A stretch of DNA of 64,000 nt from contig JAPLME010000012.1 of NCBI GenBank assembly GCA_026387175.1, positions 139,429-203,428 of the forward strand, in the 5' to 3' direction. Shown piece after piece: positions 7,661 through 25,127 of the stretch. A model generated the notes under the pieces. That model did no database searches. It had not been told where the DNA came from and was given only the letters and a program-made list of their open reading frames with translations. The position numbers and the translations under genes were made by a program. The stretch's first letter is position 1. Each line of letters opens with the position of its first letter. Origin of the DNA: Candidatus Omnitrophota bacterium (lineage in GTDB: Bacteria; Omnitrophota; Gorgyraeia; 2-01-FULL-45-10).

Positions 7661-10600
7661 ATGAGTAGAGCAAAAAACTCAAACTTGTTTAAAGCCCTAT
7701 CTCTCATCTTAATAAGCACATTTCTATCTCTTGATATATCATATGCATATCCTCCCGAACATAATGCCAATGATTCCACGTTAGCTATTCCTTCTGTTTT
7801 GCAACAAACGCCTATAAATGAGCAAGCTGCACAATTACAACAGACTGTATTATCCCAAGGCAAGTTATTGGGCGCTGTTTGCAGTATAGGTAAATATCTT
7901 TTAGAAGATAAGCTCCCGATTAAGTATTTAAGGCAGGTTATCTCAGCGGAACTTGGCAAGGCCATTGAGGATATAGACTTGTCTCAAGTTACTGTTAAAG
8001 ATGGTGCTGCGTTCATCCCGTGCGTGATAAACAACAGAAAGCGCATCGTTCAGCTGGCTCTGAAAAATAGCCTTGCTGTAAAAAACTTAACGGGTGATGA
8101 ATGGGCCGCATCTGAGAGATATACAATAAAAATTGCTCCAGAGAAGAAGGAGCAATCGAATAGAACAATAGAGCCCCATTCACCAAAAAATATTGACGAA
8201 CAGAATATAGGATTATTTCAATCCACCCTGATAAAACGAATAGTGCAAGAGTTTGATTTAGGTGAGATTTTGAATATTGATTTCATAAACGGTGGTGGCG
8301 GAAGAATAAGCAGCCCCATTCCCAGAATCAAAACGGCAAAAGGCGTATTTTTGATAAAAAAACTGAAGAGAATGCGGGCGGATCAAAAAGGAGGCGAAGA
8401 AGACGCCTCCTTTATTATGGATTATGTGCATTATCTTATTCATCAAGGCATATCCATCCCCAGCGTTACTAAAAATGATTCAAACGGAAATGATCCCCGA
8501 GATTATTTTACAACATTTGATGTTACCACGCCCGGGGACAAAAATAAGAGATATGAATTTTATACCGTAGATAAATTTGTAGAAGGAAGATCTATCCTTC
8601 GTGAGGATTGTCCGCCGGAGACGCTTAAAGCGATCGGTAAAACGCTTGGGAAAATTCATAAAGTATCCGAAAATTTCCCCATCCGATTCAAGCTCGGCCC
8701 AGGACATTATAGTTTCTTATATTCAGTGAATGGAACGCTAGATCCTAAAGCGACTTGGTACGATAATTTGGACTCATACCTTAATCCTACAGAAAAGAAT
8801 ATCATAAGCGAAGCAATGAAAGAGATAAGAAATTATTGGAGTGAGCATGATATTAATAAAATTTCCAAACCCCAGACCATACCAAGCGATATGAATATGG
8901 CAAATATCATTTTTAACGAAAGCGGTACCGAAATACGCGCTATCTTTGATTGGGATAACGCGCGTCCCAATAGTTATAGGATAGAGGACTTTTTTGCTAC
9001 GTTATGTCATGGAGGAAGACCCCGAACCGCCAAATCATATGGCATTGCCGAAGACCTGCAGTATCTTTTACAAGGGTGGGAAGAGGGTTATGGCGGAAAA
9101 CTTGGAAAAAATGAGGAGGATTCGATTCCTCACCTCTTTGTTACAATCGTAATGGACCATATTCATGATTCTGCAGAAATATTAGCAAAGAAGGACCCGA
9201 ACGATAAATATACCGAGGATAATTTACATAACATTCTTGTGCCGGCATTGGCTAGTTTGATTAAAGGCATGATCGATAAAAAAAATACGCAGCAATATAC
9301 CCGCGAAGGCATTAAGTTGTGGTATGAACAATCAAGAAAAACTGAAAAACCGATAAAGGATTCGACATTTAATTTGACGTTGACAACTCTTTTTGGGGTT
9401 GAGTATAAGCCGGGGAGCGACGCAAGAGAAAATGCGGAATATGTCGTATCGGTGATGAATAAGTACCCCGATCGCATGGATGGGTTTATAAAAGATCTCT
9501 TCGAAGCCCTCGATAGAGGCGGACATTCGGCGACATGGTCCGGCAGATACGCGCCGCTTGCATTAGCCATGCATAATATATTGAAAGGTGGTAACGTTAA
9601 CCTCTATGATGTAGATGAGAGTTTTAATAAACTGAGCAAAGATATTCCTGAGATAGCATATCTGCTGAGTGCGTATCCTTTAACTGCCCGCGATCGCGCC
9701 GGACTTCCGCCATCCCCTGAATTCAAATTTAACGGAAATGTGCTCGCAAGCACACCTATAAAGATAATTGATTTCGGTAGCGCTCCGAAAGAGGACGGGC
9801 CTCCCGTTTTTACAACCTTGTTGAGCGTTCTGGAGCTTCTGCATCCCGGTAGATTTGATGCGGTTATAACTGATATTGTTTATCCTAAGTATCGTATTAC
9901 CGATACCGATGATATAGAGCCCGGTAGATATCAGTTTGTTGATGGAAAGGCTGATATAACGGTAAAGAAATACGGCGCTGACTGTAAGATTACGTGTTTC
10001 GATGCCTTAGCGGATGGTACCGATGGCAAATATAATGTCGTATCAGATTCATACAACTCATCTGAAAAGTATGATTTTGTGATTGCGAGCAACCTTGTAG
10101 CAGGATATATGGGCCCTAAATATCAAGGACAAACAGGGCGAGGAATAGAAGTTAACGGCAAGCGCCTGCTAAGAGAAGACGGCAATGATCAAAAGTACGA
10201 TCTTAATGACGACCAGGAAAGAATAATAAAGAATCTTCTTAAGAGTCTTAAGCCTAATGGAATACTGTTCTTTAACCCGAGCGGAACGGCCATCGACCGT
10301 AGCACAGATCACGTATTTCAGGTGATCCAAAATAAAGACGGTAGCTATGTCGTTTTTGATAACGTTATCCCATACACAACAAGCCCCGAATGCCTGATGA
10401 CGCCTTTCAATAATCTTGCCGATTATCTGCCTAAGGAAAAACGGCATTTGATAGAAGAAATCCTTCCTAAGGACAAAGCCTCATCAGACGAAATAAAAAA
10501 ATTGTTTACTCACGCCTTCTCGCTTGCTTACCATTATCAGAATAATGGCCATTCAATATGGGCCAATATGTCAAAGGCTTCTTGCGCGATCGGCATGGGG

Positions 10601-13600
10601 AGGGGGTTTATAAAGGTATTTAATACGATTATGGAGTATGTGCCGGACAAATATAGGAATCCAGTAATGGATCAGGTCAAAGATATCCTGCACAAGGAGC
10701 ACGTCTCGATCATTGACGACACCGTGAACCCTGAGCAGATATTGGATCATTACACCTCCCTTACCGATAAGAAATTAAAGGAAGAAGCAGTTTGTACTAG
10801 AGATCATATGGAGCGCGTGGGAGGAATAGTTTCAAGAATAGGTGTGAAGATAGGGCTTTCGCCGGATGACATGAAAATATTGATGGCCGCCGCATATGGT
10901 CACGACGCCGGAACAGACATGCTTTCGTCAGTATGGAAAAATATAAATGACGCGAAAGTTGATACTAATCTCGAAAAAACCCGTGCTAACATTAAAAGGA
11001 ATCCAGGTAAGGCAAATACTTTATTATCCCTTCCGGACTTTATTGTCTATGCGGAAAAGCTTATTACGGAAAGAAAGGGCGTACCGCTGACAGATGAAGA
11101 AAAGTATTTAATCGAACTCATGATCGAAGATGATTATAGGCATGGAGAAAATTCCGTAGAATTTCTGAGCAATTTTTACATAATACCCGAAGAAGTCGCG
11201 ATATTGATCAGAGAGCATAAAGACTATGAAAGCTTTTTGGAAAATATCGGTAATATTAAAGATTCTGATCGGATGGAGCGGCTGTTATCAATATTGATAA
11301 CAGCAGATGCCTTTGAGGCCATAAATGCCCGGACATCTAAAGCATTTAAAGAAACATTTGATGATATCAGGAAAAAAGGCCTCAATGAAGAGCCGTTAAA
11401 TGCGCTTTTAGCGCTCTTGGAAAAAAAAGACAAAGAATTATTAGATATTATTTTCGAAGCCAGAAAAACAGATAAATTAACCCCTGAAGACGAAGTATTT
11501 CTTAAGTTATCAGGTGAGAAAGAATTTAAAAAGATTTTCAGTTCCTACCCGACTATCAAAGAGGCGGAAGCTAACGGGTGGCTTGGGATAGCGATTCCGC
11601 GCTGGAAAGAGCTAAAGATAATGCAGCAATGGGGGCCGCATGACGATACGGTCGCTGCTCATACCCTGGGGGTATTAGAGGCTTTGAGTCAAAATGAAGC
11701 ATTAAGGAATCTTAAGAATCCTGAAGATGCTTTCACCATGGCATTTTTCCACGATTTCGGCAAAGATTTTTACAATCCTAATTATAAAAAGTCATCGGAT
11801 CAAAAACATTCAGATACTCATAATATAATAAGCGCAAAGCTTGTTTTGGATATACTTCCCGGGTTTGGTTTTAGCGAAGAGTATGCAAAGAAGATCGCAT
11901 GGTATGTGAAGTATCACCATGTTATGTGGCATCTGGCATATAAGGGAGGAATAGAGGCTAATATAACAGACGCTAACGGAAAGGAAACAACATCGTCTTT
12001 TCTTGATGAACTGACCGAAAGAGACATAGATATATTTACGATGTTTTTCTGCGCCGAAATGAAACAGGTGGGAACGTGGGATCTCGGATCGAATAGTGAA
12101 AGCATACTGAAGGTATCGGATCAATTAAAGAGGTTCGTGAATGAAACAAAAGATATTCAAGGAAAGGATCGTAAACAAAAAATAGCGCAATTTATGAAAG
12201 AGTTGATAAATGCAGCGAGTGAACGTAAGCCATGGGTAGAAAAATCAATTCGTTTTATATCTCCGAGCGTAATGGAATATCCTAACCCTGATCAAATTGA
12301 AGAAGTTTTTAGGAGTTTGGATGAAGAGATTGTCAATCATGGTATTTTTGGCATTATCCCTACATACAGATATAACTACATAAAATTATTAATGGATAAC
12401 ATGAGTCTTATAGATGAGTCAAAATATCTGTCCGCTGCATGCAAAAATGACTTACGCAAACTTTCCGCCGAAGATAGAAAAAGTTTCGCGATTGTCGCCA
12501 ATCGCGTATTGTTAGATATCTTAAATAGATCAAGTAACGGCGAGGAAGGATATTCCTTACCGGTTGTTTCCAATTTAGACTATATGCCAAATAGCCCGAC
12601 TATATTACTGGTTGCCCCTTTTGAAAAAAAAGAATTAAAGGCAGGATCGTTCCTTGCCCCGCCGCTCGGAATTTATAGGTTGGCAAATTATTTAAGATTA
12701 TTCGGGATAAAAGTCGATATATTTGACCCGAATCTTAATGGCGGCAAAGAGAAGGGCGCTGAAGAGCTTTGCGATTTTGTAAAAAAACAAACCACAAACG
12801 GAGGATATGATTTTATAGGATTCAGCATATATGCGCCGACATTGGAAAATGACTTAGAGCTTGCAGGAGAATTAAAGAAGATTTCCGCTAAATCTATTTT
12901 TATAGCCGGAGGCGAGGGTGCTTTTTATAATTCAGAAAAATTACTGACGCCCGATACGTCTTTTAATGCCATATATAAAGGATTTGGAGAAGCTTCTCTT
13001 CTTGACACTTTAATTTTATATATGCAAAACGGCAAAGGAAATCTCTATGATAAAGAAGGGGCTAGAGAGATAAAAAGCGCTATCGTAAAATTAAAGACCG
13101 GCGAAGTTATCGAAACGCCTCCGCAATCTATGGTAACAAAGGATGAGTACAGAGTTATGTCCTTATTTTTTGACAGTACGATCGTACCATATGAAGGCTA
13201 TTGGAGTTTTATGGAAGAATTATATGTTTGCGGATCCGCGGAAGTCAAGCCGATCATAGACGTAGACGCTATAAAAACGGTTAGATTAATAACCAGCAGC
13301 CATTGCCCCATGGGGTGTTCATTCTGTTCTTCCACGAATTTTCTTAATGACTCGATCGGCGAGAAAAGGCAACGGGTTCTTTCTTTGGCTCCCCAGGAAA
13401 TAATAGAAATTTTAAGGAATATAAAAAAATATCATCCGGAGACCAGAACCATATTCTTTAACGACGATGATTTTATGATCTACCCAAAGCGGGTTAAAGA
13501 ATTATGCGGTTTAATTAAGAAAGAGTTCGGAGGAAATGGATTCCGGTTTATTGCGCTTGGGAGGGTGGACAAGGTCGATAAAGAATTGCTTGAAAAAATG

Positions 13601-16600
13601 CAGGAGGCCGGATTTATTCAGATAAATTATGGCATCGAGAGCTTTTCAGACAAAGTCTTACTGGATATGAATAAAAATATTAAGAGCAGTAAGAATATTA
13701 CGGGGCTCGACATTACTTTAAATAGCGGGATAGTTCCTCTGATCAATCTCATATTATTTTACCCGACAGCTACAAAAGAAGATGTACTGTCTACTATGCG
13801 AACATCCGTTGAATTTGTCGCTAAAGGAGCCGAGTTGAGTTATTGGCCGTTTGTAGAAGCGTTCAAAGGGGCTTCTATAATGAAAAAAGTTAAAAATGGC
13901 AAAAATCCCGAAGGCGAGTATGAGTTATCGGAAAATGGAAAAGATATCTCGCCGGTTGATATAGAAGTTAGAAACCTTGCAAAAGAAGCCATTAGAAATA
14001 AAGAAACGGTAATCCAGGAGATAAAGACAAAATATGCCATAAAAGGAAAGATCCCGCATGTCGTAGATGTACTAGCCTTCTTTATCGCGTTTTATAGAGC
14101 TTCCGGTGAGCCTACGCAACGTATCGAACAAGTGATCAATGATAGGCTTGGCGCGCATGCGCAAAAGATTAAAACTATTGAAGTAGGGAAAACCTCATTA
14201 AATGTTATAGTTGCCGAAAGAATTAATACCGGTTTAATTGAGTTTCAGAAGCCGATAATTGTTACGACAGGAGAAGAAGGAGAAGCTGAAAGGCGTGCCG
14301 ATAAAGAGTTACGAGCAGGTCATGTAGGTGTGATTACGGTGGCCGGCGGCGAAGCTTCAAGGGCAGGGATTGGGTATCCTAAGGGGATGCATCCGATTAT
14401 GCCGGTTTCAGATAAAACGCTGTTTGAAACCCGCGCCGAAGAAATAAAAGTTGCCGAGGAATACTATGGTAAGACGATTCCCTGGTATATTATGATTTCA
14501 GAAAACACCGGTAAGGCCACCCAGAGTTACTTCGGAGAAAATAAATTTTTTGGTTTAAGGAAGGAAGATGTTATTTTTGTTCAGGCGGAAAGCGTACCGG
14601 CGTTCTTGGCGGGTACGCAACGAGTAGCCATGAAGGATGCCGAGCACATATTAACGATGCCGGGTGGACATGGCAACATATATAAGGCCATGCAGAACAA
14701 ACAGGCACGCACGGATGGAGGAAAGATAAGCGCGCTAGAAGATGCTAAGCAAAGAGGCATAGAAACGTTTGTATACTGTCAAATTGATAATGCGATGCCG
14801 GTTATGAATAGACGGGCTTTAGGGGTACATCTGAAAGAGAATTCGGATTTTACGATCGTCTCAGTGCGCAAAAGAGATCAAGAGGAAAACCTCGGCATTC
14901 CTGTTCTGGATACTTTAAACGGGAATAACTTTTTTGTTGAATACAATCAGCCCGGAGGCGAGGAGCTTAAGCATAAAAAGGGTTTTGATTATGGCGCGTG
15001 CGGTATATTTATTCTCGCGCGCAGTTTTATGGAGAAAATGGATCAGCCTCCATATCATCTGGTCCGCAACAAAAAATCTAAAATATATAAAGACGGTAAA
15101 ATTCAGCAAGGCCTTATCGACAAATATGAAAATTTTATGTTCGATGTTTTACCGTATGCAAAAAAATCAGTTAATATTTTATTTCCCAGAGAAGAATGTT
15201 TTGCTCCGTTTAAGAGCATGGAAGGGCCTGATTCTTATGAGGCCGCTGCCAAGACCGTATCAAATTACTGGAAAATAATAATTGGAAGGGCATTTCCTGA
15301 GCTTGAAATTCCTCAGACAACGATTATTGAATTACCCAGGCGTTCAGAATACATGAAACCGCGAGAACTTAGAAGAGCATTATTGGCTATAAATTTTCCA
15401 AATTTTTTGGAAGGAAACGCAAGCTTGCTTGTTTCGTCTGATTTCATGAAAGTGACTAAAAAGATATTGAATCTATCGGGAAATTCCCGCGCGCTGTCCG
15501 GCAGGCTGCTTACTGGTAAATTATCCCGATATGAAAGAGAAATATTAAAGAGGGCTATACTGGAAAAGTATAGAGAAGAGCAAAAAGTAGGGGCGATCGA
15601 AAAAATTCGGTATCCGCAGGATAGCAGTGATTGGGAATCGGCCGGTAATGCTTTGGCAAAAGCCCGGGAAAAATATGCAGAAACCGGCAAGCCGTTATTT
15701 TTAGAAGGAGTTACTTTAATTTACAGGCCTAGAGACAACAAATATGGACTATTTCGAGAAGCAATTGAAAAAATGAATAACTGGAATACAGCGGAAGAAA
15801 AACCTCTTGTTGCCACCGTCGCCGCAGGATCAGAGCATATAACACTCTATGATCTTGCTTGTATGCTTGACTGGGAGAGGAAATATAAAAATCAATTTAA
15901 TGATTCTACGAAACACGAAATTGATAAAAGAACCGAAGAGCTTCTTGGGGCAGGTGGGTTTGAGACAGGGGATCATGCCTGCGAGCAAGCCACATATGAA
16001 ATATTAACCAAGAAGGTTGATAAAATATTAAAAGATTTTAAAGCGGATAGAGCGCCTGTTTTTAAACCGTGCAATATCGCTATATCAATGCCACCATGCG
16101 GGCCGTTTGCCGTTCTTTTAAGCATGGAGCCTAAGACCGCGGAAGATTTAGCGATTGTCACTAAGATTCAGGATGCTATCAGGGATGAAACCGGAATTGA
16201 AAACACAGGAGCTGTTAAAGTCCATATAACATTGGGGTATATTGTTAATTCTATTTATAAGGATGAAAAGGTATTTGGAGAATTCATGCGGCATATTACC
16301 GAATTAGACGCGTATATAAGAGGGAAAGGCGCTTTACCGGAGCACGAATTTACCTCCCCTCAAATGGAACTAAGCTATCTCGACAATCTGGACAATTATA
16401 AACCTATCTCTACTTTTGGATGGATAGGCTCGAATATAAATTCTGCAACTTCGTCAGTAGCAGCGCCGGTCGCAATCCGTGCCGGCACTCCCGAAGGCCG
16501 ATATGACGTAGCCACCGCGAAAGTCATTAATGGAGAATTGCAGGATTACAAAGGTATAGATAATGGGATGCAGGCGGCCCTGTCAACGCTATTGGAAAGA

Positions 16601-18862
16601 ATCACGAATAAGGACATTGAAACGAAAGTCGCCGAGCTTCTTGGCGACGATGTCGCGAGAATAAAGCTATTAGAAGGCAAAACCATAAGAATCGTCCAGG
16701 ACAACGACCGGTTAATGCACTTTACGGAAGATCCTAATGTCATAACTATAGATATAGACGCACTAAAGTATAACGAACTTTTATTCATGGAATTCATCCA
16801 CGAATTATTACATGCGAAGCTTGCGGCAATGCCTACGAGAGCAGGACCTATCGAGGAAGAGATAACTGTTACTACACTGGAAGTCGAACTCTTCCTGACA
16901 TTCCCGCAAGATATCCAGAATAAGATCCTCGAAACACTCAAAGCAGATAATGACTTAGATGACCAGCAATTCTATAAAATCCTCGAAAAAGCTAAAACCA
17001 ATGCCGATATCAATAGCGTAAGAGACGATATTATAAATTATGTCCTTTCAAACCTCCCCGATCATGGTATAGGCATCCCCATTGCTGTATCATATGATAC
17101 CGGAGAATATCTGGCGCATGTGGCATTTCAGCAGGAATATAGCGACACAGCCACCTATGACGGCAAGGACAGGCAATTCCTACACAGAACTCCCGATGGC
17201 AAAATCAAGACAGGCCCTTGTACAGACTTTTTATTGACGAAGCGGAAACCGATAAATGAATATATCAAAGAGTTTAAGGCCGCTCACAGTGAATTAGAGA
17301 TTATTGCCGTACTGCCGCATGGCAATGCCATGACGAACGAAGGATTTGTAATATTCTCCGGAGGTAAGCTCTATCATACAATTAAGGAAATAGAACAACC
17401 GGATGCAAAAGGCAAAACCTACACCTGCTTTGTGTCGTGGAAGGATAAATGGGAAGGAAAAAAATATTCAGTCAAGGAATTGGAATTCAGAGGTAATGAA
17501 GTATTCGTGTCCGGGACGGCCTCGCCAATTACAGATAAGATCAACTATGCCGTATCGGGCCAACAACTTGTCAAAGGCTCAGAAGCTGTGCCTATAGCCA
17601 GTCTTTATGATAAATTAGTGGACCCAAAACAGATATTTATTTACCCACACTTTAAATACAAAGATTCCGAAGGCAATGACCGCGATCTATTCTTCGGTAT
17701 GGCCGCTATGTACAAGAATAAAGAATTGTTCGAAAAAGTTCTGAAACCTGAACCGGAATTCATCGAATTCAGTAGGGCAGAGCTTGTCGACCTGGGGATT
17801 AATGCAAATGACGTGATAAAAACGGCTATGGATGAGCTTGGCTACAAAGAAGAGGCCGATTACATACTTACACCGAGTATGATAAAAATACGGCTTAAAC
17901 TAAACCCTTATGCCCACAACCTGATAGGTGTAAACGATAAAGGGGATATAGTCACCATAACATGCACAGGCGATTCCAAAAAGCATAAAGGTATAACCAT
18001 AACGGATCTCCAGGATTTTGTAATTAAGAACGGCGTGAAGGACATGATAATGCTATCTAACGGCACGGACATACAGATCCTAGATGGAAACGGTAAAAGG
18101 CTTGTCGAATCCGCCAATAAAGCTCGCACTGAAATGCCGGCAGTAATAATAATTGCGAAGAAACGCTTGTCGGTATCCAAAACAGTGGAATTCTCATTGA
18201 ATAATGAAAATAATCTTAACCAATTCGAAGCAGATAGTGCGGTCGGAGATTTGATAATTCTCGCAAGGCGTGCTCAAAGAGAGAACCAAAAACTTATAAT
18301 CGGCCTTGAGACGGATTGGATACCCGGAATGAATGTGAAGGGCAGCCTGCAGAGAAATGCAATTGCCGCGCTAATGAAAGAAATAGATGGAATTGGCGAA
18401 ACCTTAAAATCTATGGGCTTGGATAATGTAGAGGTTATCCGCGGGAGTGGGAATGATTTAGCAAATACATTGCTGACTGAAGCCGATAAAACCCATACCA
18501 GTTTGCATAACATCGTTGTGATGGCATCGACAAACACTATAAATTCTAATAGCTTTACGGCGTTAAAGGATGCGAATGAGAATGATAGACCATTCCTTGC
18601 CGGTATAGACCCTACGGAACTGATGAAACTTTACGACGAATTTGGCGAGACTACCAGTAAACAGCTCTATATACGACTGATGCAGATGCTCTATATGACA
18701 TTGGAGCTTGCGTCAGGTAAGGAGCCGCCTCAGATTCCCTTAATCATGTCATATGATAAGAAGACGAGAACTGTTATATTCCTGCCAAAAGCAGAGCCTA
18801 GAGATTATGAAATGTTAAAGAACGTCTATGCGGCTGAGAAGATGGCGTTAGCAGCGGCATAG
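7661..18862 (+). CDS. Giant secreted multidomain protein (3733 aa). Contains a signal-peptide-like N-terminus, a PKL/APH-like kinase fold with a degenerate catalytic motif, two HD domains, a B12-binding + radical SAM domain, a UDP-sugar pyrophosphorylase-like nucleotidyltransferase, an HExxH module, and a C-terminal domain shared with the 21211 gene.
   Basis: No in-frame stop for 11.2 kb. RBS-poor but AT-rich upstream. SDMNMAN...FDWD (8885-8968). AYGHDAG (10901) and FFHDFGKDF (11750). SHCPMGCSFCSS gives CxxxCxxC at 13304-13327, preceded by a Rossmann-like B12-binding region (DFIGFSIYAP). VITVAGGEASRAG...MPGGHGNIY (14320-14700) UDPGP-like. FIHELLH at 16798-16812. Confidence 0.85.
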   Translation: MSRAKNSNLFKALSLILISTFLSLDISYAYPPEHNANDSTLAIPSVLQQTPINEQAAQLQQTVLSQGKLLGAVCSIGKYLLEDKLPIKYLRQVISAELGKAIEDIDLSQVTVKDGAAFIPCVINNRKRIVQLALKNSLAVKNLTGDEWAASERYTIKIAPEKKEQSNRTIEPHSPKNIDEQNIGLFQSTLIKRIVQEFDLGEILNIDFINGGGGRISSPIPRIKTAKGVFLIKKLKRMRADQKGGEEDASFIMDYVHYLIHQGISIPSVTKNDSNGNDPRDYFTTFDVTTPGDKNKRYEFYTVDKFVEGRSILREDCPPETLKAIGKTLGKIHKVSENFPIRFKLGPGHYSFLYSVNGTLDPKATWYDNLDSYLNPTEKNIISEAMKEIRNYWSEHDINKISKPQTIPSDMNMANIIFNESGTEIRAIFDWDNARPNSYRIEDFFATLCHGGRPRTAKSYGIAEDLQYLLQGWEEGYGGKLGKNEEDSIPHLFVTIVMDHIHDSAEILAKKDPNDKYTEDNLHNILVPALASLIKGMIDKKNTQQYTREGIKLWYEQSRKTEKPIKDSTFNLTLTTLFGVEYKPGSDARENAEYVVSVMNKYPDRMDGFIKDLFEALDRGGHSATWSGRYAPLALAMHNILKGGNVNLYDVDESFNKLSKDIPEIAYLLSAYPLTARDRAGLPPSPEFKFNGNVLASTPIKIIDFGSAPKEDGPPVFTTLLSVLELLHPGRFDAVITDIVYPKYRITDTDDIEPGRYQFVDGKADITVKKYGADCKITCFDALADGTDGKYNVVSDSYNSSEKYDFVIASNLVAGYMGPKYQGQTGRGIEVNGKRLLREDGNDQKYDLNDDQERIIKNLLKSLKPNGILFFNPSGTAIDRSTDHVFQVIQNKDGSYVVFDNVIPYTTSPECLMTPFNNLADYLPKEKRHLIEEILPKDKASSDEIKKLFTHAFSLAYHYQNNGHSIWANMSKASCAIGMGRGFIKVFNTIMEYVPDKYRNPVMDQVKDILHKEHVSIIDDTVNPEQILDHYTSLTDKKLKEEAVCTRDHMERVGGIVSRIGVKIGLSPDDMKILMAAAYGHDAGTDMLSSVWKNINDAKVDTNLEKTRANIKRNPGKANTLLSLPDFIVYAEKLITERKGVPLTDEEKYLIELMIEDDYRHGENSVEFLSNFYIIPEEVAILIREHKDYESFLENIGNIKDSDRMERLLSILITADAFEAINARTSKAFKETFDDIRKKGLNEEPLNALLALLEKKDKELLDIIFEARKTDKLTPEDEVFLKLSGEKEFKKIFSSYPTIKEAEANGWLGIAIPRWKELKIMQQWGPHDDTVAAHTLGVLEALSQNEALRNLKNPEDAFTMAFFHDFGKDFYNPNYKKSSDQKHSDTHNIISAKLVLDILPGFGFSEEYAKKIAWYVKYHHVMWHLAYKGGIEANITDANGKETTSSFLDELTERDIDIFTMFFCAEMKQVGTWDLGSNSESILKVSDQLKRFVNETKDIQGKDRKQKIAQFMKELINAASERKPWVEKSIRFISPSVMEYPNPDQIEEVFRSLDEEIVNHGIFGIIPTYRYNYIKLLMDNMSLIDESKYLSAACKNDLRKLSAEDRKSFAIVANRVLLDILNRSSNGEEGYSLPVVSNLDYMPNSPTILLVAPFEKKELKAGSFLAPPLGIYRLANYLRLFGIKVDIFDPNLNGGKEKGAEELCDFVKKQTTNGGYDFIGFSIYAPTLENDLELAGELKKISAKSIFIAGGEGAFYNSEKLLTPDTSFNAIYKGFGEASLLDTLILYMQNGKGNLYDKEGAREIKSAIVKLKTGEVIETPPQSMVTKDEYRVMSLFFDSTIVPYEGYWSFMEELYVCGSAEVKPIIDVDAIKTVRLITSSHCPMGCSFCSSTNFLNDSIGEKRQRVLSLAPQEIIEILRNIKKYHPETRTIFFNDDDFMIYPKRVKELCGLIKKEFGGNGFRFIALGRVDKVDKELLEKMQEAGFIQINYGIESFSDKVLLDMNKNIKSSKNITGLDITLNSGIVPLINLILFYPTATKEDVLSTMRTSVEFVAKGAELSYWPFVEAFKGASIMKKVKNGKNPEGEYELSENGKDISPVDIEVRNLAKEAIRNKETVIQEIKTKYAIKGKIPHVVDVLAFFIAFYRASGEPTQRIEQVINDRLGAHAQKIKTIEVGKTSLNVIVAERINTGLIEFQKPIIVTTGEEGEAERRADKELRAGHVGVITVAGGEASRAGIGYPKGMHPIMPVSDKTLFETRAEEIKVAEEYYGKTIPWYIMISENTGKATQSYFGENKFFGLRKEDVIFVQAESVPAFLAGTQRVAMKDAEHILTMPGGHGNIYKAMQNKQARTDGGKISALEDAKQRGIETFVYCQIDNAMPVMNRRALGVHLKENSDFTIVSVRKRDQEENLGIPVLDTLNGNNFFVEYNQPGGEELKHKKGFDYGACGIFILARSFMEKMDQPPYHLVRNKKSKIYKDGKIQQGLIDKYENFMFDVLPYAKKSVNILFPREECFAPFKSMEGPDSYEAAAKTVSNYWKIIIGRAFPELEIPQTTIIELPRRSEYMKPRELRRALLAINFPNFLEGNASLLVSSDFMKVTKKILNLSGNSRALSGRLLTGKLSRYEREILKRAILEKYREEQKVGAIEKIRYPQDSSDWESAGNALAKAREKYAETGKPLFLEGVTLIYRPRDNKYGLFREAIEKMNNWNTAEEKPLVATVAAGSEHITLYDLACMLDWERKYKNQFNDSTKHEIDKRTEELLGAGGFETGDHACEQATYEILTKKVDKILKDFKADRAPVFKPCNIAISMPPCGPFAVLLSMEPKTAEDLAIVTKIQDAIRDETGIENTGAVKVHITLGYIVNSIYKDEKVFGEFMRHITELDAYIRGKGALPEHEFTSPQMELSYLDNLDNYKPISTFGWIGSNINSATSSVAAPVAIRAGTPEGRYDVATAKVINGELQDYKGIDNGMQAALSTLLERITNKDIETKVAELLGDDVARIKLLEGKTIRIVQDNDRLMHFTEDPNVITIDIDALKYNELLFMEFIHELLHAKLAAMPTRAGPIEEEITVTTLEVELFLTFPQDIQNKILETLKADNDLDDQQFYKILEKAKTNADINSVRDDIINYVLSNLPDHGIGIPIAVSYDTGEYLAHVAFQQEYSDTATYDGKDRQFLHRTPDGKIKTGPCTDFLLTKRKPINEYIKEFKAAHSELEIIAVLPHGNAMTNEGFVIFSGGKLYHTIKEIEQPDAKGKTYTCFVSWKDKWEGKKYSVKELEFRGNEVFVSGTASPITDKINYAVSGQQLVKGSEAVPIASLYDKLVDPKQIFIYPHFKYKDSEGNDRDLFFGMAAMYKNKELFEKVLKPEPEFIEFSRAELVDLGINANDVIKTAMDELGYKEEADYILTPSMIKIRLKLNPYAHNLIGVNDKGDIVTITCTGDSKKHKGITITDLQDFVIKNGVKDMIMLSNGTDIQILDGNGKRLVESANKARTEMPAVIIIAKKRLSVSKTVEFSLNNENNLNQFEADSAVGDLIILARRAQRENQKLIIGLETDWIPGMNVKGSLQRNAIAALMKEIDGIGETLKSMGLDNVEVIRGSGNDLANTLLTEADKTHTSLHNIVVMASTNTINSNSFTALKDANENDRPFLAGIDPTELMKLYDEFGETTSKQLYIRLMQMLYMTLELASGKEPPQIPLIMSYDKKTRTVIFLPKAEPRDYEMLKNVYAAEKMALAAA

Positions 18863-19071: not shown

Positions 19072-21195
19072 ATGGAAAGATTAAAGAAGATAGTTGCGAT
19101 TCTAATTATCATATGTTTCGGCTTAAATAATGTTTCTTATGCCTTTGAGATCAATGCATTTAAGCTGGCCGTGCCAAGCAGTTTTTCTAACTTTAAGGAC
19201 CAGGGATTCAAAGAAGCCGCGCAAATACAGATCGGTATGCGCATGGCTTTAAAAGACCTGGCATCACTTGACCTATCTTCTTTAAATGCACTAGGAAAGC
19301 GACAATTTGCTGAAAAAACTATTTTTACCCGAAAAATATCAGGCACCATGTATTTTGATGAGGCCCAAGCATGTAAGCCTAACGATCAAAAGCTTTATGC
19401 TGAATCAGGCAGCTATCTGGTTAAGGCACAAACAGCAAGCGGCATAACATATTACTGTTTTATCTCAAACAAGAGAAATGAGAAAGGTTATGATGTCTCG
19501 GTCGTGCCTGAAAAAGTGCTTGCCGAAGCGCTGCGAAATGATTATGCGGCGAAGGGCACTAAAAAGAAAAGCATGTTTAGGGGAGGCATATCTATAGTTA
19601 TTGCAGGCGCCCTGATGATAGGCGCCTATTCTTACTTCCATGGAGAATCAAATAAAGATGCGCTATCAGAAGTAATGAACGCTATAAATGAATGGCATAA
19701 ATACGAATACGCTGCTCCCGCTACTTACCAGGATAATCTGGTCAAAATAGCGCGCGAAAAAATAATAGAAAGATTGGTAAGTGCATTAGGTGAATATCGG
19801 CACAATAAGAGATTTGGCGATTATTTTGAGGACGACTCGGGGCTTCAGGAAGATAAGGAAACATTCGACTGCACTGTCCCCGAAATCGCGGCTAATGCTT
19901 TTGGCGAAATAGGTAAGCCAGCCGTTCCGAAACTCATAAAAGCACTAAATGAAAAGGTAGTGAAAAAATCAGATTTCAAGCGCCGTGAATATGTAGCAAA
20001 AGCATTAGGTATGACGGGTGATGCAGAAGTGGTAGAGCCGTTAATTCAAACCTTAAAACAATTGGCAGATAGCGGTTGTGGGGCCAGCGATTACAAGCAC
20101 AATAAGTCCGTATTTGACGGTTTAGTTAGAGTAGGTAAACCGGCCGTCCCGGCGCTTATAGAAGTTCTAAATGATAATACAAGGGATCCCAAAAAAACCT
20201 TAGAGACTCACCGCGGTCCGCTTTGCAGCTATGAATGCTTCAACCGTGCTAAATTTGCCGCCGAAGCGTTAGGTGTTATAGGCGATGGAAGAGCCGTAGA
20301 GCCTTTAATTCAAGCTCTAAAACGGTTATCAAACGTATACTGGGTGGATACGATTTCCGCAAATCATAACATAGTAATTGCTTTAGGAAGGTTAGGAGAT
20401 AAGCGGGCAATCGAGCCGCTCATGGTACACATGAAGAATAACGAATGGAACCCTAGCCGCGTTAAAATCGTAAAAAAGGCTATCGAAAGAATCGAAAAGA
20501 GGCAGGGGGGCACATCGGCTCCGGAGACGTCGTCTCAAGGGCTGGCAATGGCTGGTTCAGTGGTGTTAGGTTTAGTAGGGAAGCCTAGGGAAAAGTATGC
20601 AAAACCGGCAAACGAAGACATCCGTCTTATAGCATCGCGAATAAAAGAAGCGGGCATAGAAGTATTTATTCCTAAATCTCAATTCCTGGGTGACACGATA
20701 GCTAAATATAGGGGCGTTGTGGAATCTATAGGAGGCAAGCTTAGGGTATACCAGAATATCGAAGCCTTGCAAGGCATGGTGGAGTATCCCGCTAAGTCAA
20801 TAATAATGACCGCCGGTATTTCAGAAGGCGACATGGCATTGTTGCAAAGTTTAAAAGCAAGCATGGGGCAGCTTAGATTCATGAATTTTGCAAAGATGGA
20901 GGATTTAAGTACGATGTCAGTAGAAGAGGTTGATAATTATCAGGCTGATATTTTAAGCATTCTCCTTATAGCAAGAATAATTACGCCCGAAGATTTTCAA
21001 GATAAGGGCAGTCCCACCTATCGGATGCTTGCGCATCTATTGGAAGACTACATGCCTGAAGGCGTAGCAGTGGAAAATTATATACAGGATATAGTTACAA
21101 ATGCGGCTAGACTGGTTAAGACGATATTGAAGGCCTTACCAGTAGCAGCATACAAAGTTATGAGGCAATCTGTTGAAGTTCTCTGGGCAGCGTAA
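19072..21195 (+). CDS. Secreted/membrane HEAT-repeat (PBS-lyase-type) protein, 707 aa.
   Basis: N-terminal hydrophobic leader MERLKKIVAILIIICFGLNNVSYAFE. Repeated A.ALG.IGD..AVEPLIQALK motifs (19900-20420), typical of HEAT_2/PBS lyase repeats. Ends ...VLWAA. Confidence 0.7.
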   Translation: MERLKKIVAILIIICFGLNNVSYAFEINAFKLAVPSSFSNFKDQGFKEAAQIQIGMRMALKDLASLDLSSLNALGKRQFAEKTIFTRKISGTMYFDEAQACKPNDQKLYAESGSYLVKAQTASGITYYCFISNKRNEKGYDVSVVPEKVLAEALRNDYAAKGTKKKSMFRGGISIVIAGALMIGAYSYFHGESNKDALSEVMNAINEWHKYEYAAPATYQDNLVKIAREKIIERLVSALGEYRHNKRFGDYFEDDSGLQEDKETFDCTVPEIAANAFGEIGKPAVPKLIKALNEKVVKKSDFKRREYVAKALGMTGDAEVVEPLIQTLKQLADSGCGASDYKHNKSVFDGLVRVGKPAVPALIEVLNDNTRDPKKTLETHRGPLCSYECFNRAKFAAEALGVIGDGRAVEPLIQALKRLSNVYWVDTISANHNIVIALGRLGDKRAIEPLMVHMKNNEWNPSRVKIVKKAIERIEKRQGGTSAPETSSQGLAMAGSVVLGLVGKPREKYAKPANEDIRLIASRIKEAGIEVFIPKSQFLGDTIAKYRGVVESIGGKLRVYQNIEALQGMVEYPAKSIIMTAGISEGDMALLQSLKASMGQLRFMNFAKMEDLSTMSVEEVDNYQADILSILLIARIITPEDFQDKGSPTYRMLAHLLEDYMPEGVAVENYIQDIVTNAARLVKTILKALPVAAYKVMRQSVEVLWAA

Positions 21196-21210: not shown

Positions 21211-24200
21211 ATGAATACAATAAAGAACCACAGATTTTTTAAAATAATATGTTTTGCTCTAGTCATTACGTTTATCTCACTCGACATATCATATGCTTAT
21301 CCCGCTGAACACACAGCGCAGAATTCCACACTTGCTACCCCATCGGTATTTCAAACGCAGCCTATTACTACACATGCTGAAGCATTTCAAAGGTCGATGC
21401 TTGCGGACGGCAATCTTTTAGGTACAGTTTGCAGTATAGGTAAGTTTCTATTGGAAGACGGCATCAAACTTCGTCATCTTGCCAGAGTATTAGGCGAGGA
21501 ACTGGGAGACGCCGCTAAGTATGTAGACCTGTCGCGAGTAAGCGTGACGATTATGTATGATGGCAGACTGGTAAAACTCGATCCATCATTATCGGTAGAT
21601 ACCCCCCAGAGCGCTGTCGTATTAATTCCATATAATAAAGACGGGAAGAATGGGATAATCGAGATTGCGTTAAAGAACAATCCGTTTATCGATAAGTTAG
21701 CCGGATATCAGTGGGTTGTGTCGGATAAGTACGTTATTAAGGACCTGCCTGCCGATTATAAAGAGCCTGCATTACGGCCCGCACCAGAAGTTAAAACGGA
21801 AGCGCCTGTTCAACCGACTATAAGCGGGCCTATAGCGCGGGTCGAGGCTCCGACTACTGAAGCAGAAAAGTCCAAAGGTATTCTGACGAGGGTATTCAGT
21901 ATAAGGGCAATTACGACGTTTACATTAGCCATTATTCTGCTATTTACACAGACTGCGCTTGCCGCATCAGGTGACAGCACAAACCTCTTTTCTTCCAGCA
22001 ACATGTTTCGACTAGTCACAGGAATAGCGGTCCTCATAACCGTTTACCATTTTGCTAAGAAACGGCTTATGTTGGCAAAGGCGCAAGCTATAATAAATGA
22101 AATTGGCACATTGGTATCCATGCGGACGGAATTTTCGAAAGTTTATGTTGTTGATAATCCAGGCCAGGCGCTATTTTCTATTGGGACCAAAAGCGGAGAA
22201 ATGCCGGATATGTGGAATTCCGCACTATTTATCAACGCATCCATAATAAGACAGATGAGATTTATATGGCTTTGGGATAATCATAACGATTTGATTAGGC
22301 AGATAATGTCGGTAGATTTATATCAGAGAGCTGTGTCTGTAAATGAGAGTGAAAGCATAGATAGTAGTTTAAAAACACAAGGATATGCGGGCAGAGACGA
22401 TCCAAATGCAAAAAACGCCTACTTTTCCGAAATAAATAAAAGAGCATATTCAAAAGTGGGCCCAAGAGGAGTTGCGTTGGAGGCTTGGTTTTACCAAATT
22501 TATTCAGATCCTTTATATGCCATAAAGCATGCAAACAGGGATTGGATTGCAAGCGAAGTTGGAATATATTTAGCCAAAAGATATTTATGGATGAACAATA
22601 GGCAGATCAAAGAAGTTATTAAAGAGATATTTAAAATAAACGAATATTTTTTCAATCCGAAAAAATCAAAAAGCATAACGTTTAAATCTATCAATCCATT
22701 CGCCGCCATATTCGGCATTGCAGCATTAAACTCGACATTCTCTGTAGTAAAAGATTTCATCTTCGCGATAACCAAAGATAATGTGATAGACGCCGCGATG
22801 ATAGGCACGACGCTTGTGCTATCCATCTCTGTGTGGCGGTCAGATTTTCCTGTCAGCTGGCATTTGTTCTGGGCGAGATTCACCAAAATTAGTAACGCGC
22901 ATATAAATGCGTTAATTAAAATGGACAGGATGGCTGTCCCCGATCTTATAAAAAATGTATTAGGGTCTAAAAATCGCGGTACCCGTTGGCTTGCACTGTA
23001 CATCCTTGGCGAGATCGGTCCTGTAACGCCTGAAGTTATACCCGCCTTTGTAAAAGCATTAGGAGATAGTGATAGCGGCATTCGCGCTCTTGCCGCAGAC
23101 TTAATTATTGAAGCAGACGATATCCGTCTTTCATTCATGCGCGATTATCTAAAGATGGTTAGATACGCGAAAGATGAAGGCGATAGATATTATGAAGTTC
23201 TAAACCGGGAAGAGATAAACTATATTGTCGAATGCCTTAATAATAACATGGCTATAAAAGGCCAATATATCTCCCATGTTCTCAGCAATGGTTCGTTGGC
23301 GAAATTGATTATAAATATGAACGCGCCGGTAGTTCCTACTGCGAAAGGGACAGAGCAAAAGTTGGGTGCAGCCGAACTAAAATCCAAATGGTCTGAAAAA
23401 ATGAAGAGCGCGGACGAGATAGGGATAAAAGTTAACATAGGCCAGCTTGACGAAATAACTGCCACTAAAAAAGAAATTAACGGAATAGAATATTTTGAAT
23501 CGAATACACATAATATGAAAGTTAGCGGTGATAATCGGTGGCATAGAGAAGATGCTGTAGTATGTTCTTTCGATGCAGCAGAATTTAATTTCACAAAACT
23601 ATATGAAGATGTAAAACCGCGGCATTTAATAGACGAAATTAAATTGGAGAATGATGATTGGTATATCGGTATGGATTACATGCCGATATTGAAATATCAT
23701 ATGATCATCGCCCCGAAGCAGGCGCGCCAACAGCTGGCGACGCCGAAAGACATGGCCGATATGCAGCAGTTTTTGGCGCAAATGGGAGATGAAAAGGCCA
23801 CGCTTCTGCATAATAGCTTATTGGCCGGAGCGGGCATAAATAGCTTACATTATCATTTATTCTTTTATGATTTTCCGATTTTTAAAGAAGGATTCCCGAT
23901 TTATAGAGGGACAGAGAAATTTAACACAAAAACATTTACAGGAAAAAATTGCGCCCAAGAAGCAGGGGCATATTTAGAGGAGTTACAAGGCGCTAATCAG
24001 CCGTATAATTTGGTAATGAGATATGAAAAGATCATTATTATACCGCGCCCTCGCGATATAGAATTTGGATATGGAGCCGATGCGTTAGCAGGCGTTGTTT
24101 TCTATGGCAATGATCGATCGCTGGAAGCGGCAACCTGGTATAAGCCGGAACTGATGCAGGTTTCTAATGCCGCCCAGCTATTCGAAATAGTAGAATCCTC

Positions 24201-25068
24201 TCTGAACAGTAGAATGGCGCAGTTTATTAAGGCCGGGAATAACCTTATTAATTTGGCCAACACAAGAATGGCCTTGGAAGGCCGTCCCAGTATCGGTAAT
24301 CTCGATCAAAGAATGACTACGGCCGGAATAATACAGAAGGTTGAGTGGGCTATTGAAAGTTTGGATAAGGAAGGCATTGCGCCGGAAATTAAATCCGCCG
24401 TCGAATCACTGAAGAAAAATCTCACCCAATTCGAAGCAGATAGCACGGTCGGGTCACTGATCGTTCTAGCCAGAAGAGCAAAAAGAGAGGATCAGAAGCT
24501 TATAATAGGCCTTGAGACAGACTGGATACCCGGCATGAACATAAAGGACAGTTGTCAAAAACAGGCAATATTCGCGCTTATGAAAGAGATAGACTCTATA
24601 GGTGATGCGTTAAAGTCCATGAGACTCGATAACGTAGAGATCATCCGCGGGAGCGGCAAAGAGCTGGCCGACACATTGCTGGATAAGGCAGGGAAGACGC
24701 GCACCAATCTGCATAACGTAGTAGTCATGGCCTCCAGCGACACTATAAACTCCGAGAACTTCGCTAAATTAAGGAACGTTGACGATAACGACAGGCCGTT
24801 CTTAGCCGGTATTGACCCTAAAGATCTCATTAAGTTTTACTCCGAATATGGCGAAAGCACCAGCAATCAGCTCTATGTGAAACTGACGCAACTGCTTTAT
24901 ATGACGCTTGAACTTGCGTCGGGGAAAGAACCTATGTATACGCCAATAATCGATTCTTATGACAGGAAGATGAGAATTGTTATATTCATGCCAAGAGCAG
25001 AGGCAAAAGATTATGAGGCGCTTAAGAACACTTATGCAGCTGAAAAGACTGCATTAATGGCAGCCTAA
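21211..25068 (+). CDS. Large secreted multidomain protein (1285 aa). Its N-terminal leader domain and C-terminal 210-aa domain are homologous to those of the 3733-aa protein. It also has internal TM segments and HEAT repeats.
   Basis: RBS aaagga 8 nt upstream. N-terminus ...SLDISYAYPAEH... is ~55% identical to 7661-8000. C-terminus 24418-25068 is ~75% aa / ~80% nt identical to 18215-18862. HEAT-like VPDLIKNVLGS...IGPVTPEVIPAFVKALGDSDSGIRALAA (22925-23110). Confidence 0.8.
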   Translation: MNTIKNHRFFKIICFALVITFISLDISYAYPAEHTAQNSTLATPSVFQTQPITTHAEAFQRSMLADGNLLGTVCSIGKFLLEDGIKLRHLARVLGEELGDAAKYVDLSRVSVTIMYDGRLVKLDPSLSVDTPQSAVVLIPYNKDGKNGIIEIALKNNPFIDKLAGYQWVVSDKYVIKDLPADYKEPALRPAPEVKTEAPVQPTISGPIARVEAPTTEAEKSKGILTRVFSIRAITTFTLAIILLFTQTALAASGDSTNLFSSSNMFRLVTGIAVLITVYHFAKKRLMLAKAQAIINEIGTLVSMRTEFSKVYVVDNPGQALFSIGTKSGEMPDMWNSALFINASIIRQMRFIWLWDNHNDLIRQIMSVDLYQRAVSVNESESIDSSLKTQGYAGRDDPNAKNAYFSEINKRAYSKVGPRGVALEAWFYQIYSDPLYAIKHANRDWIASEVGIYLAKRYLWMNNRQIKEVIKEIFKINEYFFNPKKSKSITFKSINPFAAIFGIAALNSTFSVVKDFIFAITKDNVIDAAMIGTTLVLSISVWRSDFPVSWHLFWARFTKISNAHINALIKMDRMAVPDLIKNVLGSKNRGTRWLALYILGEIGPVTPEVIPAFVKALGDSDSGIRALAADLIIEADDIRLSFMRDYLKMVRYAKDEGDRYYEVLNREEINYIVECLNNNMAIKGQYISHVLSNGSLAKLIINMNAPVVPTAKGTEQKLGAAELKSKWSEKMKSADEIGIKVNIGQLDEITATKKEINGIEYFESNTHNMKVSGDNRWHREDAVVCSFDAAEFNFTKLYEDVKPRHLIDEIKLENDDWYIGMDYMPILKYHMIIAPKQARQQLATPKDMADMQQFLAQMGDEKATLLHNSLLAGAGINSLHYHLFFYDFPIFKEGFPIYRGTEKFNTKTFTGKNCAQEAGAYLEELQGANQPYNLVMRYEKIIIIPRPRDIEFGYGADALAGVVFYGNDRSLEAATWYKPELMQVSNAAQLFEIVESSLNSRMAQFIKAGNNLINLANTRMALEGRPSIGNLDQRMTTAGIIQKVEWAIESLDKEGIAPEIKSAVESLKKNLTQFEADSTVGSLIVLARRAKREDQKLIIGLETDWIPGMNIKDSCQKQAIFALMKEIDSIGDALKSMRLDNVEIIRGSGKELADTLLDKAGKTRTNLHNVVVMASSDTINSENFAKLRNVDDNDRPFLAGIDPKDLIKFYSEYGESTSNQLYVKLTQLLYMTLELASGKEPMYTPIIDSYDRKMRIVIFMPRAEAKDYEALKNTYAAEKTALMAA

Positions 25069-25098
25069 TTAAGATATAAAAAAGTTAGTATAGAGCTA

Positions 25099-25127
25099 TT
25101 GACTTGTGTGTCTACATATGATATTAT
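25099..25127 (+). promoter_or_regulatory. Sigma70-like promoter for the 25201 giant gene.
   Basis: TTGACT (25099-25104), 17 nt spacer, then TATTAT (25122-25127), in an AT-rich intergenic region about 75 nt upstream of the start. Confidence 0.5.

Follow-up and report, generated by a model that had tools for sequence, protein, structure and literature searches.

Omnitrophota are ultra-small bacteria, thought to live as symbionts or predators, for which giant proteins are characteristic. MARTX and LapA proteins are giants with conserved terminal regions, a variable centre (effector-laden in MARTX) and a C-terminal element that is made last, and LapA-type adhesins carry an N-terminal retention module with a protease site nearby. 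The cargo of type IX secretion in Bacteroidota has an N-terminal Sec-type leader and a conserved folded domain at its extreme C-terminus, with many paralogues per genome, variable and sometimes giant passengers and restriction to a single phylum; its C-terminal domain is described as an Ig-like beta-sandwich of 70-100 aa (PMC11285876). Long and giant proteins of Omnitrophota are the subject of bioRxiv 10.64898/2026.06.07.730766, 10.1101/2023.11.21.568195 and PMC10066038, of which the passages searched deal with far larger proteins, at least 10,000 aa in one survey and encoded by giant ORFs >20 kb in another. The "multi-enzyme metabolic cluster" long proteins in those passages resemble the family described here in phylum, in the tiling of one chain by numerous unrelated Pfam enzymes, in the kinds of enzyme (sugar metabolism, kinases, radical SAM, HEAT), in the signal peptide and/or transmembrane helices that most possess and in their clustered genes. 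Our family members measure 0.6-5.6 kaa, the length class surveyed in 10.64898/2026.06.07.730766 being multi-thousand to over 100,000 aa. Shared N- and C-terminal modules are not described in the passages searched of the Omnitrophota papers.

We analysed a window of 64,000 nucleotides, the whole stretch of Omnitrophota DNA under study, in which five giant ORFs lie in tandem (Table 1). BLASTP aligned the C-terminal 216 residues of the 3733-aa protein (residues 3518-3733) with those of the 1285-aa protein (1070-1285) without a gap at 70% identity (151/216, E 1e-91), corresponding to nt 18212-18859 and 24418-25065; the original prediction had thus placed two homologous C-terminal domains correctly, its estimate of about 75% identity being slightly high. 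The DNA of the two copies is also 70% identical, with differences mainly at third codon positions. The N-termini share 34% identity over 243 aa (E 6e-37), rising to 51% without gaps over the first 113 residues, where both proteins possess the leader and the sequence LDISYAYP, in agreement with the N-terminal homology that had been proposed from the hydrophobic leader and an SYAYP motif. The claim that four proteins end in AA also held for the five tandem ORFs (RTAA, LAAA, LWAA and LMAA, the remaining one ending in KSL). Alanine makes up 8.7% of residues across the window proteins, and terminal AA is therefore expected at <1% of protein ends. The next genes 3′ of the flagged ones are more giant ORFs.

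Table 1. Giant ORFs of the window and their component features
Feature	Position (nt)	Strand	Description
Giant ORF 1	3..7502	+	>2499 aa, open at the window's left edge; PPDK_N domain; ends ...YLPKALPIDYGREIETYRNAVNAIRTAA
ORF 1, divergent C-domain homologue	7044..7499	+	about the last 150 aa; hhalign, profile-profile
3733-aa protein	7661..18862	+	leader, N-domain, HD, B12-binding + radical SAM, UDPGP, weak NAGPA match, C-domain
Leader, 3733-aa protein	7682..7747	+	basic n-region, then hydrophobic helix (residues 8-29) ending S-Y-A
STLAxPSxLQQ linear motif	7772..7810	+	conserved; stretch predicted disordered
Folded N-domain	7820..8140	+	residues 54-160; two helices and a five-stranded sheet, pLDDT about 90
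C-domain, 3733-aa protein	18200..18862 (original prediction: 18215-18862)	+	alpha/beta, 220 aa, ends ...AEKMALAAA
707-aa protein	19072..21195	+	leader (…NNVSYA/FE), KLAVPSS motif, HEAT_PBS repeats; ends ...LKALPVAAYKVMRQSVEVLWAA
1285-aa protein	21211..25068	+	leader, N-domain, transmembrane hairpin, HEAT, HIT-like region, C-domain
N-terminal module, 1285-aa protein	21211..21765	+	leader, STLAxPS motif, N-domain
Transmembrane hairpin, 1285-aa protein	21892..22053	+	residues 228-281
Helical segment 5′ of C-domain, 1285-aa protein	24175..24417	+	conserved, QLFEIVESSLN...AGNNL...
C-domain, 1285-aa protein	24418..25068	+	alpha/beta, ends ...AEKTALMAA
3316-aa protein	25201..35151	+	leader (…PAFA/AA), PGM/PMM domains I-IV; ends ...ILPKIRPVDMAEAVEAYKAAQAALKSL
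3316-aa protein, probable divergent C-terminal tail	35005..35148	+	hhalign

Within the 3733-aa protein the radical SAM CxxxCxxC is intact (nt 13304-13327), and the HIT-like nucleotidyl-transferase/phosphorylase region of the 1285-aa protein is represented by weak ATP_transf and GDPGP1_N matches. The conserved helical segment upstream of the 1285-aa C-domain occurs in many family members and is absent from the 3733-aa protein. Profile comparison revealed divergent homologues of the C-domain in neighbouring giant ORFs. The tail of ORF 1 matched A1 in hhalign (E 5e-6 over the tail), and its homologue scored a probability of 94.6% (E 6.7e-8, 141 columns) in the profile-profile comparison of A1 with A4. 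The 3316-aa ORF probably possesses another (hhalign E 3.4e-4 against A1 and 8.3e-4 against A4 with its own row taken out), and the C-terminus of the 707-aa protein displayed no detectable homology to the C-domain.

Searching with a profile of the C-domain, counted as clusters at 50% identity, revealed 679 clusters at E <= 1e-3 and 528 at E <= 1e-10, and every named match came from Omnitrophota. In all 150 matches listed, from proteins of 129-5572 aa, the match ended within 12 residues of the last residue, in most of them exactly there. The N-domain was detected in 92 of the 115 C-domain members of at least 600 aa (80%), its median starting position being residue 1. In about 442 kb of sequence, made up of 27 loci and the window, N-domain matches were strong (E <= 3e-9) only in ORFs with a C-domain or in fragments truncated by a frameshift or contig end, and weak leader-only matches appeared in a few neighbouring giants. 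The middles, of about 400 to 5000 aa, are mutually unrelated (42 Pfam families matched across 30 members) and hold HEAT arrays, transmembrane hairpins and cytoplasm-type enzymes, including radical SAM/B12, HD, UDPGP, NDK, kinases and phosphatases. The constant ends and variable, enzyme-laden middles noticed in two proteins of the window therefore recur in related genomes and throughout the family, and the flagged regions are best read as the constant termini of a single Omnitrophota family with a two-ended chassis. The family is multicopy per genome; in one MAG the 88-94% nt identity among three paralogues begins at the domain boundary, and contig breaks fall inside the domain.

The AF2 model of the C-domain is a confident alpha/beta structure (pLDDT 94, pTM 0.90), a three-layer, flavodoxin/Rossmann-like domain of about 220 aa in which a beta-hairpin and a final helix close the fold at a constant spacing from the C-terminus. 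Pfam, NCBIfam and PDB-sequence searches gave no match and fold searches none that was significant, so that the domain is not a known enzymatic one. It shares its general fold class with the HAD, receiver and vWA (MIDAS) three-layer domains, together with acidic residues right after strand b1 and a Ser/Thr after another strand. Membership of the HAD phosphatase superfamily was rejected, motif I, DxDx[T/V] (with a nucleophilic Asp where strand 1 ends), being absent. Conserved polar residues follow strands b1, b3 and b4 (E37-T38-D39, S110/T113 and D137), and with G173-K174 they suggest a putative pocket that might bind a metal ion or a phosphate group. The tail keeps a strict register, with P at -25 in 91% of members, L at -4 in 87%, A or S at -2 in 95% and A at -1 in 91%, giving the end A-L-x-[A/S]-A in most members. 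Residues 203-219 form a helix (pLDDT above 90), which is a predicted state that leaves fraying or regulated exposure possible; the terminal AA lies on its hydrophobic face (positions -18, -15, -11, -4, -1), and packing alone could therefore account for its conservation. An amphipathic helix comes after the LP at -26/-25, whereas a sortase-type motif would precede a transmembrane helix and basic tail. LPXTG, PEP-CTERM and related sortase/exosortase signals were discarded, there being no C-terminal hydrophobic segment and no NCBIfam match.

In the N-terminal module a Sec-like leader is followed by the disordered STLAxPSxxQQ motif and then by a folded domain of about 110 aa. The leader is predicted to be a Sec-type signal peptide or signal anchor; every giant ORF that starts inside the window opens with a basic n-region leading into a hydrophobic helix and a small-x-Ala site. 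F21 and the -1 residue, A29, hardly vary within the family, and one of the two N-domain alignments also has an invariant D25; in the motif, L41 is invariant and Q48 invariant or nearly so. A mean net charge of +1.6 before and -1.8 after the leader indicates an N-in/C-out orientation, whereas the charges around the transmembrane hairpins place their flanking regions in the cytoplasm, and the topology is therefore contradictory. In the 1285-aa protein, K/R residues occur on both outer flanks of the hairpin and none in its loop, and its first helix ends TALA/AS, resembling an internal signal peptide.

Recurrence of the same ends in hundreds of proteins with differing middles makes them look like a common sorting or docking handle. 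We therefore tentatively favour, with rather less than even confidence, a phylum-specific two-ended chassis whose C-domain would act as that handle. Both end modules would be inherited as a pair, with the intervening stretch as a hot spot for the insertion or exchange of HEAT arrays, transmembrane hairpins and cytoplasm-type enzymes. The C-domain may then be a partner- or ligand-binding handle through which a single cellular machine recognises, docks or sorts this whole set of chains, which are otherwise unrelated; since the domain is made last, only finished chains would carry it. Such logic would be like that of the N-terminal Sec signal and C-terminal cargo domain of type IX secretion, with an unrelated fold, and by this analogy the originally proposed role of the C-domain as a secretion, anchoring or processing signal is plausible. 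The likeness to type IX cargo is one of architecture only, since our C-domain is a 220-aa alpha/beta fold and the family differs in its extra conserved folded N-domain, its cytoplasm-type enzyme passengers and the lack of detected machinery. Against the handle, no partner or transport machine for the family was found in the window and fetched loci; no gene is conserved beside family members across 27 loci, where several members stand alone among housekeeping genes, and at one further locus only housekeeping genes surround the member. The signature suggests cassette insertion between constant ends as the way in which such proteins diversify. It has no counterpart in Pfam or NCBIfam, marks out hundreds of family members and allows the clients of one putative pathway to be enumerated in any genome, and the two small, confidently folding domains provide expressible baits for partners.

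It is paradoxical that radical SAM enzymes and others dependent on nucleotides carry a Sec-type leader. The conserved polar residues and the 220-aa alpha/beta size count against a handle, as they are more typical of a module that binds a ligand or catalyses a reaction than of a passive signal. A rival reading is a cytoplasmic cap, in which the cell's own metabolic enzymes are tethered to the inner membrane and the C-domain has a regulatory or catalytic, ligand-binding role (metal, phosphate or nucleotide-sugar being candidate ligands) rather than one in targeting; we consider this somewhat unlikely. That the end modules mark clients of a so far undescribed, Omnitrophota-specific sorting or export route, with the enzymes working outside the producer's cytoplasm, on the surface or in a host or prey, is more doubtful. 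The need of the middle enzymes for ATP, UTP, SAM and an Fe-S cluster argues against export. If true, kinases, NDK, nucleotidyl-transferases and even radical SAM would be displaced from the producer's cytoplasm to the cell surface or the interior of an attached host or prey cell. A type I secretion substrate or polymorphic toxin/effector, with the C-terminus as uncleaved signal and exchangeable effectors in the middle, would explain the constant ends, variable middle and giant size, which the family shares with MARTX/LapA along with a C-terminus made last, a placement that would restrict handling to complete chains; the disordered motif beside the N-terminal domain also resembles a LapA-type retention module with its protease site. 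Yet this reading, part of the original prediction, is highly improbable. The family has a Sec-like leader and a folded, conserved 220-aa alpha/beta domain instead of a loose 50-aa signal. Neither RTX nor HemolysinCabind was matched by the five proteins of the window or stands among the families listed for 30 members. The co-occurring ABC/MFP genes that the prediction had suggested looking for, and TolC genes, were absent from the window and the fetched loci, which come from partial genomes. Polymorphic toxins vary at the C-terminal tip, whereas conservation here is highest over the last 216 aa, and across 27 loci there was no conserved small, immunity-like gene downstream.

Plain paralogy would make the ends the ancestral core of an expanding family into which domains were inserted mid-protein, with no shared role in targeting or docking. 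It fits the small members (about 630-750 aa), which are little beyond the two ends and linkers, the repeated 72-aa linker modules that bracket large inserts, the third-position differences between the window copies and the module-level homology of paralogues. Nevertheless, we regard it as quite unlikely to be the whole account: it explains the origin of the family and not what the ends do, and purifying selection on the ends, the terminal register and invariant residues over 679 clusters persist while middles change, which implies that the ends themselves serve a function. ClpX and Tsp recognise non-polar residues at the C-terminus, LAA among them, and A-L-x-[A/S]-A might mimic an ssrA-type tag, turnover of these costly chains by Clp, FtsH or a tail-specific protease being set by exposure of the last helix. 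The fixed register of the terminal motif, its non-polar LAA-type end, as in ssrA-like degrons, and a tmRNA of a related Omnitrophota MAG, predicted to encode a tag ending ...GALAV, are consistent with such a degron, which is nonetheless very unlikely. In the model the end sits in a packed helix (pLDDT 93-96) with the small residues on its buried face, the likeness to the tag spans just 3-4 residues, and a 220-aa domain is more than a degron requires.

The remainder of the window contains a beta-1,2-glucan utilisation cluster, a sugar importer and a two-component system. A histidine kinase encoded at 41216-42682, a protein unrelated to the family, likewise ends in AA.

The first 35 kb of the window carries, on the + strand, five giant ORFs, all co-oriented, with cytoplasm-type enzymes dispersed along them according to Pfam (table below); the CxxxCxxC motif of the radical SAM domain in the 3733-aa protein is intact. 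The original prediction that the 3733-aa and 1285-aa proteins share both ends was confirmed: their C-termini align without gaps over 216 residues at 70% identity (E 1e-91), the DNA of the same region being 70% identical with differences mainly at third codon positions, and their N-termini, both with a hydrophobic leader and the sequence LDISYAYP, align at 51% identity in the first 113 residues and at 34% across 243 (E 6e-37). Four of the five giants also end in AA, as had been noted. The pattern of constant ends around variable middles recurs in related genomes, in hundreds of clusters, with 42 Pfam families matched in the middles of 30 members. Together these proteins define an Omnitrophota chassis, in which an N-terminal membrane-targeting module and a C-terminal alpha/beta domain (the C-domain) are co-inherited around a cargo-tolerant middle.

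Features of the window, with Pfam assignments for the giant ORFs
Feature	Position	Strand	Content
Giant ORF 1	off left end of window, stops at 7502	+	>2499 aa; PPDK_N
3733-aa protein	7661-18862	+	HD, B12-binding and radical SAM, UDPGP; weak NAGPA match
707-aa protein	19072-21195	+	HEAT_PBS
1285-aa protein	21211-25068	+	HEAT; weak HIT-like ATP_transf match; also weak GDPGP1_N match
3316-aa protein	25201-35151	+	phosphoglucomutase domains I-IV
Beta-1,2-glucan style cluster, downstream of giants	35565-58589		2050-aa multi-transmembrane GH94 protein; three PF10091 'Glycoamylase' proteins; CBM11-like protein; solute-binding protein and two permeases; ROK; HAMP protein; two-component system (response regulator/histidine kinase pair)
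Also in remainder of window			M48 peptidase, BioY

A profile search of the C-domain against 1.84 billion cluster representatives retrieved 679 clusters at E <= 1e-3, of which 528 stayed at <= 1e-10 and 225 at <= 1e-30. Among the matches listed, in proteins of 129 to 5572 aa, 150 of 150 reached the protein end or came within 12 residues of it, most of them stopping at the exact last residue. The tail keeps a constant register: 91% of members have P at -25, the same share have Ala at -1, and 95% have Ala or Ser at -2, with Tyr (-18 and -11) and Leu (-15 and -4) in between; the most frequent carboxyl ending is ALQAA. When one genome of each species was scanned, all 25 loci recovered belonged to MAGs of Omnitrophota, a few of which bear the label 'uncultured Planctomycetia', and those database relatives that are named are likewise Omnitrophota. 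Several of these MAGs hold more than one copy of the C-domain, within which contig breaks are frequent. In MAG CAIMPC01, the last ~400 nt of three contigs (L007, L010 and L011) encode paralogues that are 88-94% identical in nucleotide sequence from the C-domain boundary onward, with unrelated upstream sequences and contigs ending at the C-domain. The onset of identity at the domain boundary points to concerted evolution or recombination of this module, with assembly breaks as a result. In public records, orthologous giant genes at two loci (L001:7348-10966 and L002:35-10489) are broken into two or three ORFs by frameshifts or assembly errors, and the upstream ORFs of the split gene in L002 are missing from the gene table, so that public annotation under-calls members of the family.

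Nearly all full-length C-domain proteins begin with the N-terminal module. A local HMM detected it in 92 of the 115 members that are 600 aa or longer, the median match starting at residue 1, and most of those without it look N-terminally truncated. Across 27 loci and the window (~442 kb), strong matches to the module (E <= 3e-9) fell only in C-domain ORFs or their fragments, with weak, leader-only matches in a few other giants. One of these, L001:20829-20966 onward, begins a 2561-aa protein on the same contig as a split giant gene, whose leader resembles the module weakly (E 2e-7) and in which glutamate dehydrogenase, ATP-grasp_5 and succinyl-CoA ligase domains are fused; thus enzymes of central metabolism too are built into such giants. 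In its n/h/c layout the leader matches a Sec signal peptide: position -3 holds a small residue, Ala at -1 and F21 are nearly invariant, and D25 is invariant in one alignment. In an AlphaFold2 model of the module (pLDDT 81), residues 8-29 form a helix and residues 30-53 are of low confidence; conservation nevertheless peaks in the latter stretch, at L41 and Q48 of the motif STLAxPSxxQQ. A PDB fold search with the small N-domain that follows gave weak kinase N-lobe-like matches over ~60 residues and nothing else.

In the AlphaFold2 model of the C-domain, built from an alignment of 22 homologues (pLDDT 94, pTM 0.90), a long helix at the N-terminal side leads into an alpha/beta core of parallel strands; a beta-hairpin and a terminal helix follow, the latter stopping one residue short of the protein end. 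Invariant or nearly invariant positions include E37-T38-D39-W40-x-P42 immediately past strand 1, Q51, N104, S110/T113 past strand 3, D137-P138 past strand 4 and G173-K174; these conserved polar residues suggest recognition via a defined pocket, possibly of a metal ion or phosphate group. Neither the C-domain nor the N-terminal module gave an above-threshold match in Pfam or NCBIfam, whether searched as single sequences or across alignments, and PDB sequence searches gave no match. RTT107_BRCT_6 appeared for the family ends below threshold in 8 of 22 members (E ~0.03-0.07) and was discounted, the members not being mutually independent. Foldseek against the PDB returned at most generic alpha/beta matches for the C-domain (best E 2.9e-3, TM <=0.33). 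A protein homologue index that seemingly holds no long proteins yielded fragments of at most 370 aa alone with the C-domain and 0 matches with the N-domain profile. Since the Foldseek, Pfam, NCBIfam and PDB sequence searches came up empty or generic, the C-domain is an undescribed domain family; that it might be a common known enzyme domain did not hold.

Its strictly terminal position, the constant register of its tail, the number of paralogues whose cargo is unrelated and its pairing with a Sec-type leader lead us to propose, tentatively, that the C-domain would be a handle through which one shared machine could recognise, dock or sort finished chains. Type IX cargo domains follow the same logic, but their fold is unrelated. 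If the enzymes instead stay inside the cell, the C-domain would more likely be a regulatory or catalytic cap, which we regard as rather unlikely. The need of these enzymes for ATP, UTP, SAM, B12 and an Fe-S cluster speaks for the cytoplasm, as does a transmembrane hairpin found directly after the N-domain in many members, whose K/R residues on both outer flanks and K/R-free loop put the flanks in the cytoplasm, whereas the leader predicts export, with a mean net charge of +1.6 before its helix and -1.8 after. A 2026 preprint met the same conflict in far larger Omnitrophota proteins and chose the outside location on topology prediction alone (bioRxiv 10.64898/2026.06.07.730766).

The terminal AA could also be read as a degron, but in the last helix it faces the buried side, where packing is the simpler explanation, and a degron seems improbable. 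A related Omnitrophota MAG carries a tmRNA gene (L018:16382-16765) with a predicted tag ending in GSLVGALAV, which resembles the family carboxyl end A-L-x-[A/S]-A. The original prediction had likened the architecture to type I secretion substrates or polymorphic toxins; both memberships fail on defining features, and we consider either identity highly improbable. The window holds no secretion genes, and all-against-all ORF clustering of 27 loci and the window found no conserved neighbour gene such as a transporter or protease. A sortase-like reading of LPKAEP was ruled out by the lack of a transmembrane helix or basic tail after the motif, and an encapsulin- or microcompartment-type targeting peptide by a tail predicted to be integral to the folded domain; PKS/NRPS-like head-to-tail docking is unlikely, as the N-terminal module starts with a membrane helix.

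HEAT repeats occur in the middles of a third of the 30 members; other families matched there include HD, radical SAM, metallophosphatase, APH kinase, NDK, guanylate kinase, UDPGP, glycogen-type phosphorylase, trehalose synthase, mannitol dehydrogenase, DUF218, ARMT1 and NAGPA domains. At window 21892-22053 and equivalent spots in many members, helix 1 of the hairpin often resembles an internal signal peptide, with basic residues, a hydrophobic stretch and then an AXA-like site (TALA|AS, VASA|AD, VRA|AD), which could be a trace of gene fusion. A crude hydropathy scan found no additional hydrophobic segment in 14 of 66 members, the 3733-aa protein included. A ~72-aa linker module (LFxLVQSKVPxSM…Y.LS.EE..IL.LA..GPGQG) recurs in family proteins P0039 (L006:5714-10663; residues 373-445 and 1271-1341), P0127, P0077 and P0087, and is absent from the 3733-aa and 1285-aa proteins. 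In several members it stands on either side of a large insert, as if cassettes entered between the repeated copies. At another locus (L031), a 4899-aa member lies between recG and rsmD-coaD, flanked by a 165-nt direct repeat (L031:9179-9343 and 24944-25108, 92% identical) that duplicates the first ~53 rsmD codons, leaving a 74-aa fragment upstream and full rsmD downstream. The 15.6-kb giant gene looks like an insertion with partial target duplication.

Giant multi-enzyme Omnitrophota proteins with signal peptides, transmembrane helices and clustering are already described in earlier papers (bioRxiv 10.64898/2026.06.07.730766; 10.1101/2023.11.21.568195; PMC10066038), the searched passages of which do not mention shared terminal modules. 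Neither of these modules is in Pfam or NCBIfam.

Among the other window giants, the C-terminus of ORF 1 is, judged by profile similarity across the tail (E 5e-6), a divergent C-domain homologue, and profile-profile comparison of the C-domain with C-termini of similar neighbours at other loci gave a probability of 94.6% (E 6.7e-8, 141 columns). The 3316-aa protein gave weak but repeated C-terminal matches (E 3e-4 to 8e-4), and the C-terminus of the 707-aa protein has no measurable homology to the C-domain, only an 'LP…AA' look and a KLAVPSS motif. Neighbouring giants across loci commonly end in h-h-[Y/L]-LP-x3-P-x-[D/N]-Y…[S/T/A]-A. What remains of the window is taken up by a beta-1,2-glucan utilisation cluster of ordinary make-up; because PGM, UDPGP and a GDPGP1-like domain occur in the giants, a link between the two through glucose-phosphate or nucleotide-sugar metabolism is possible.
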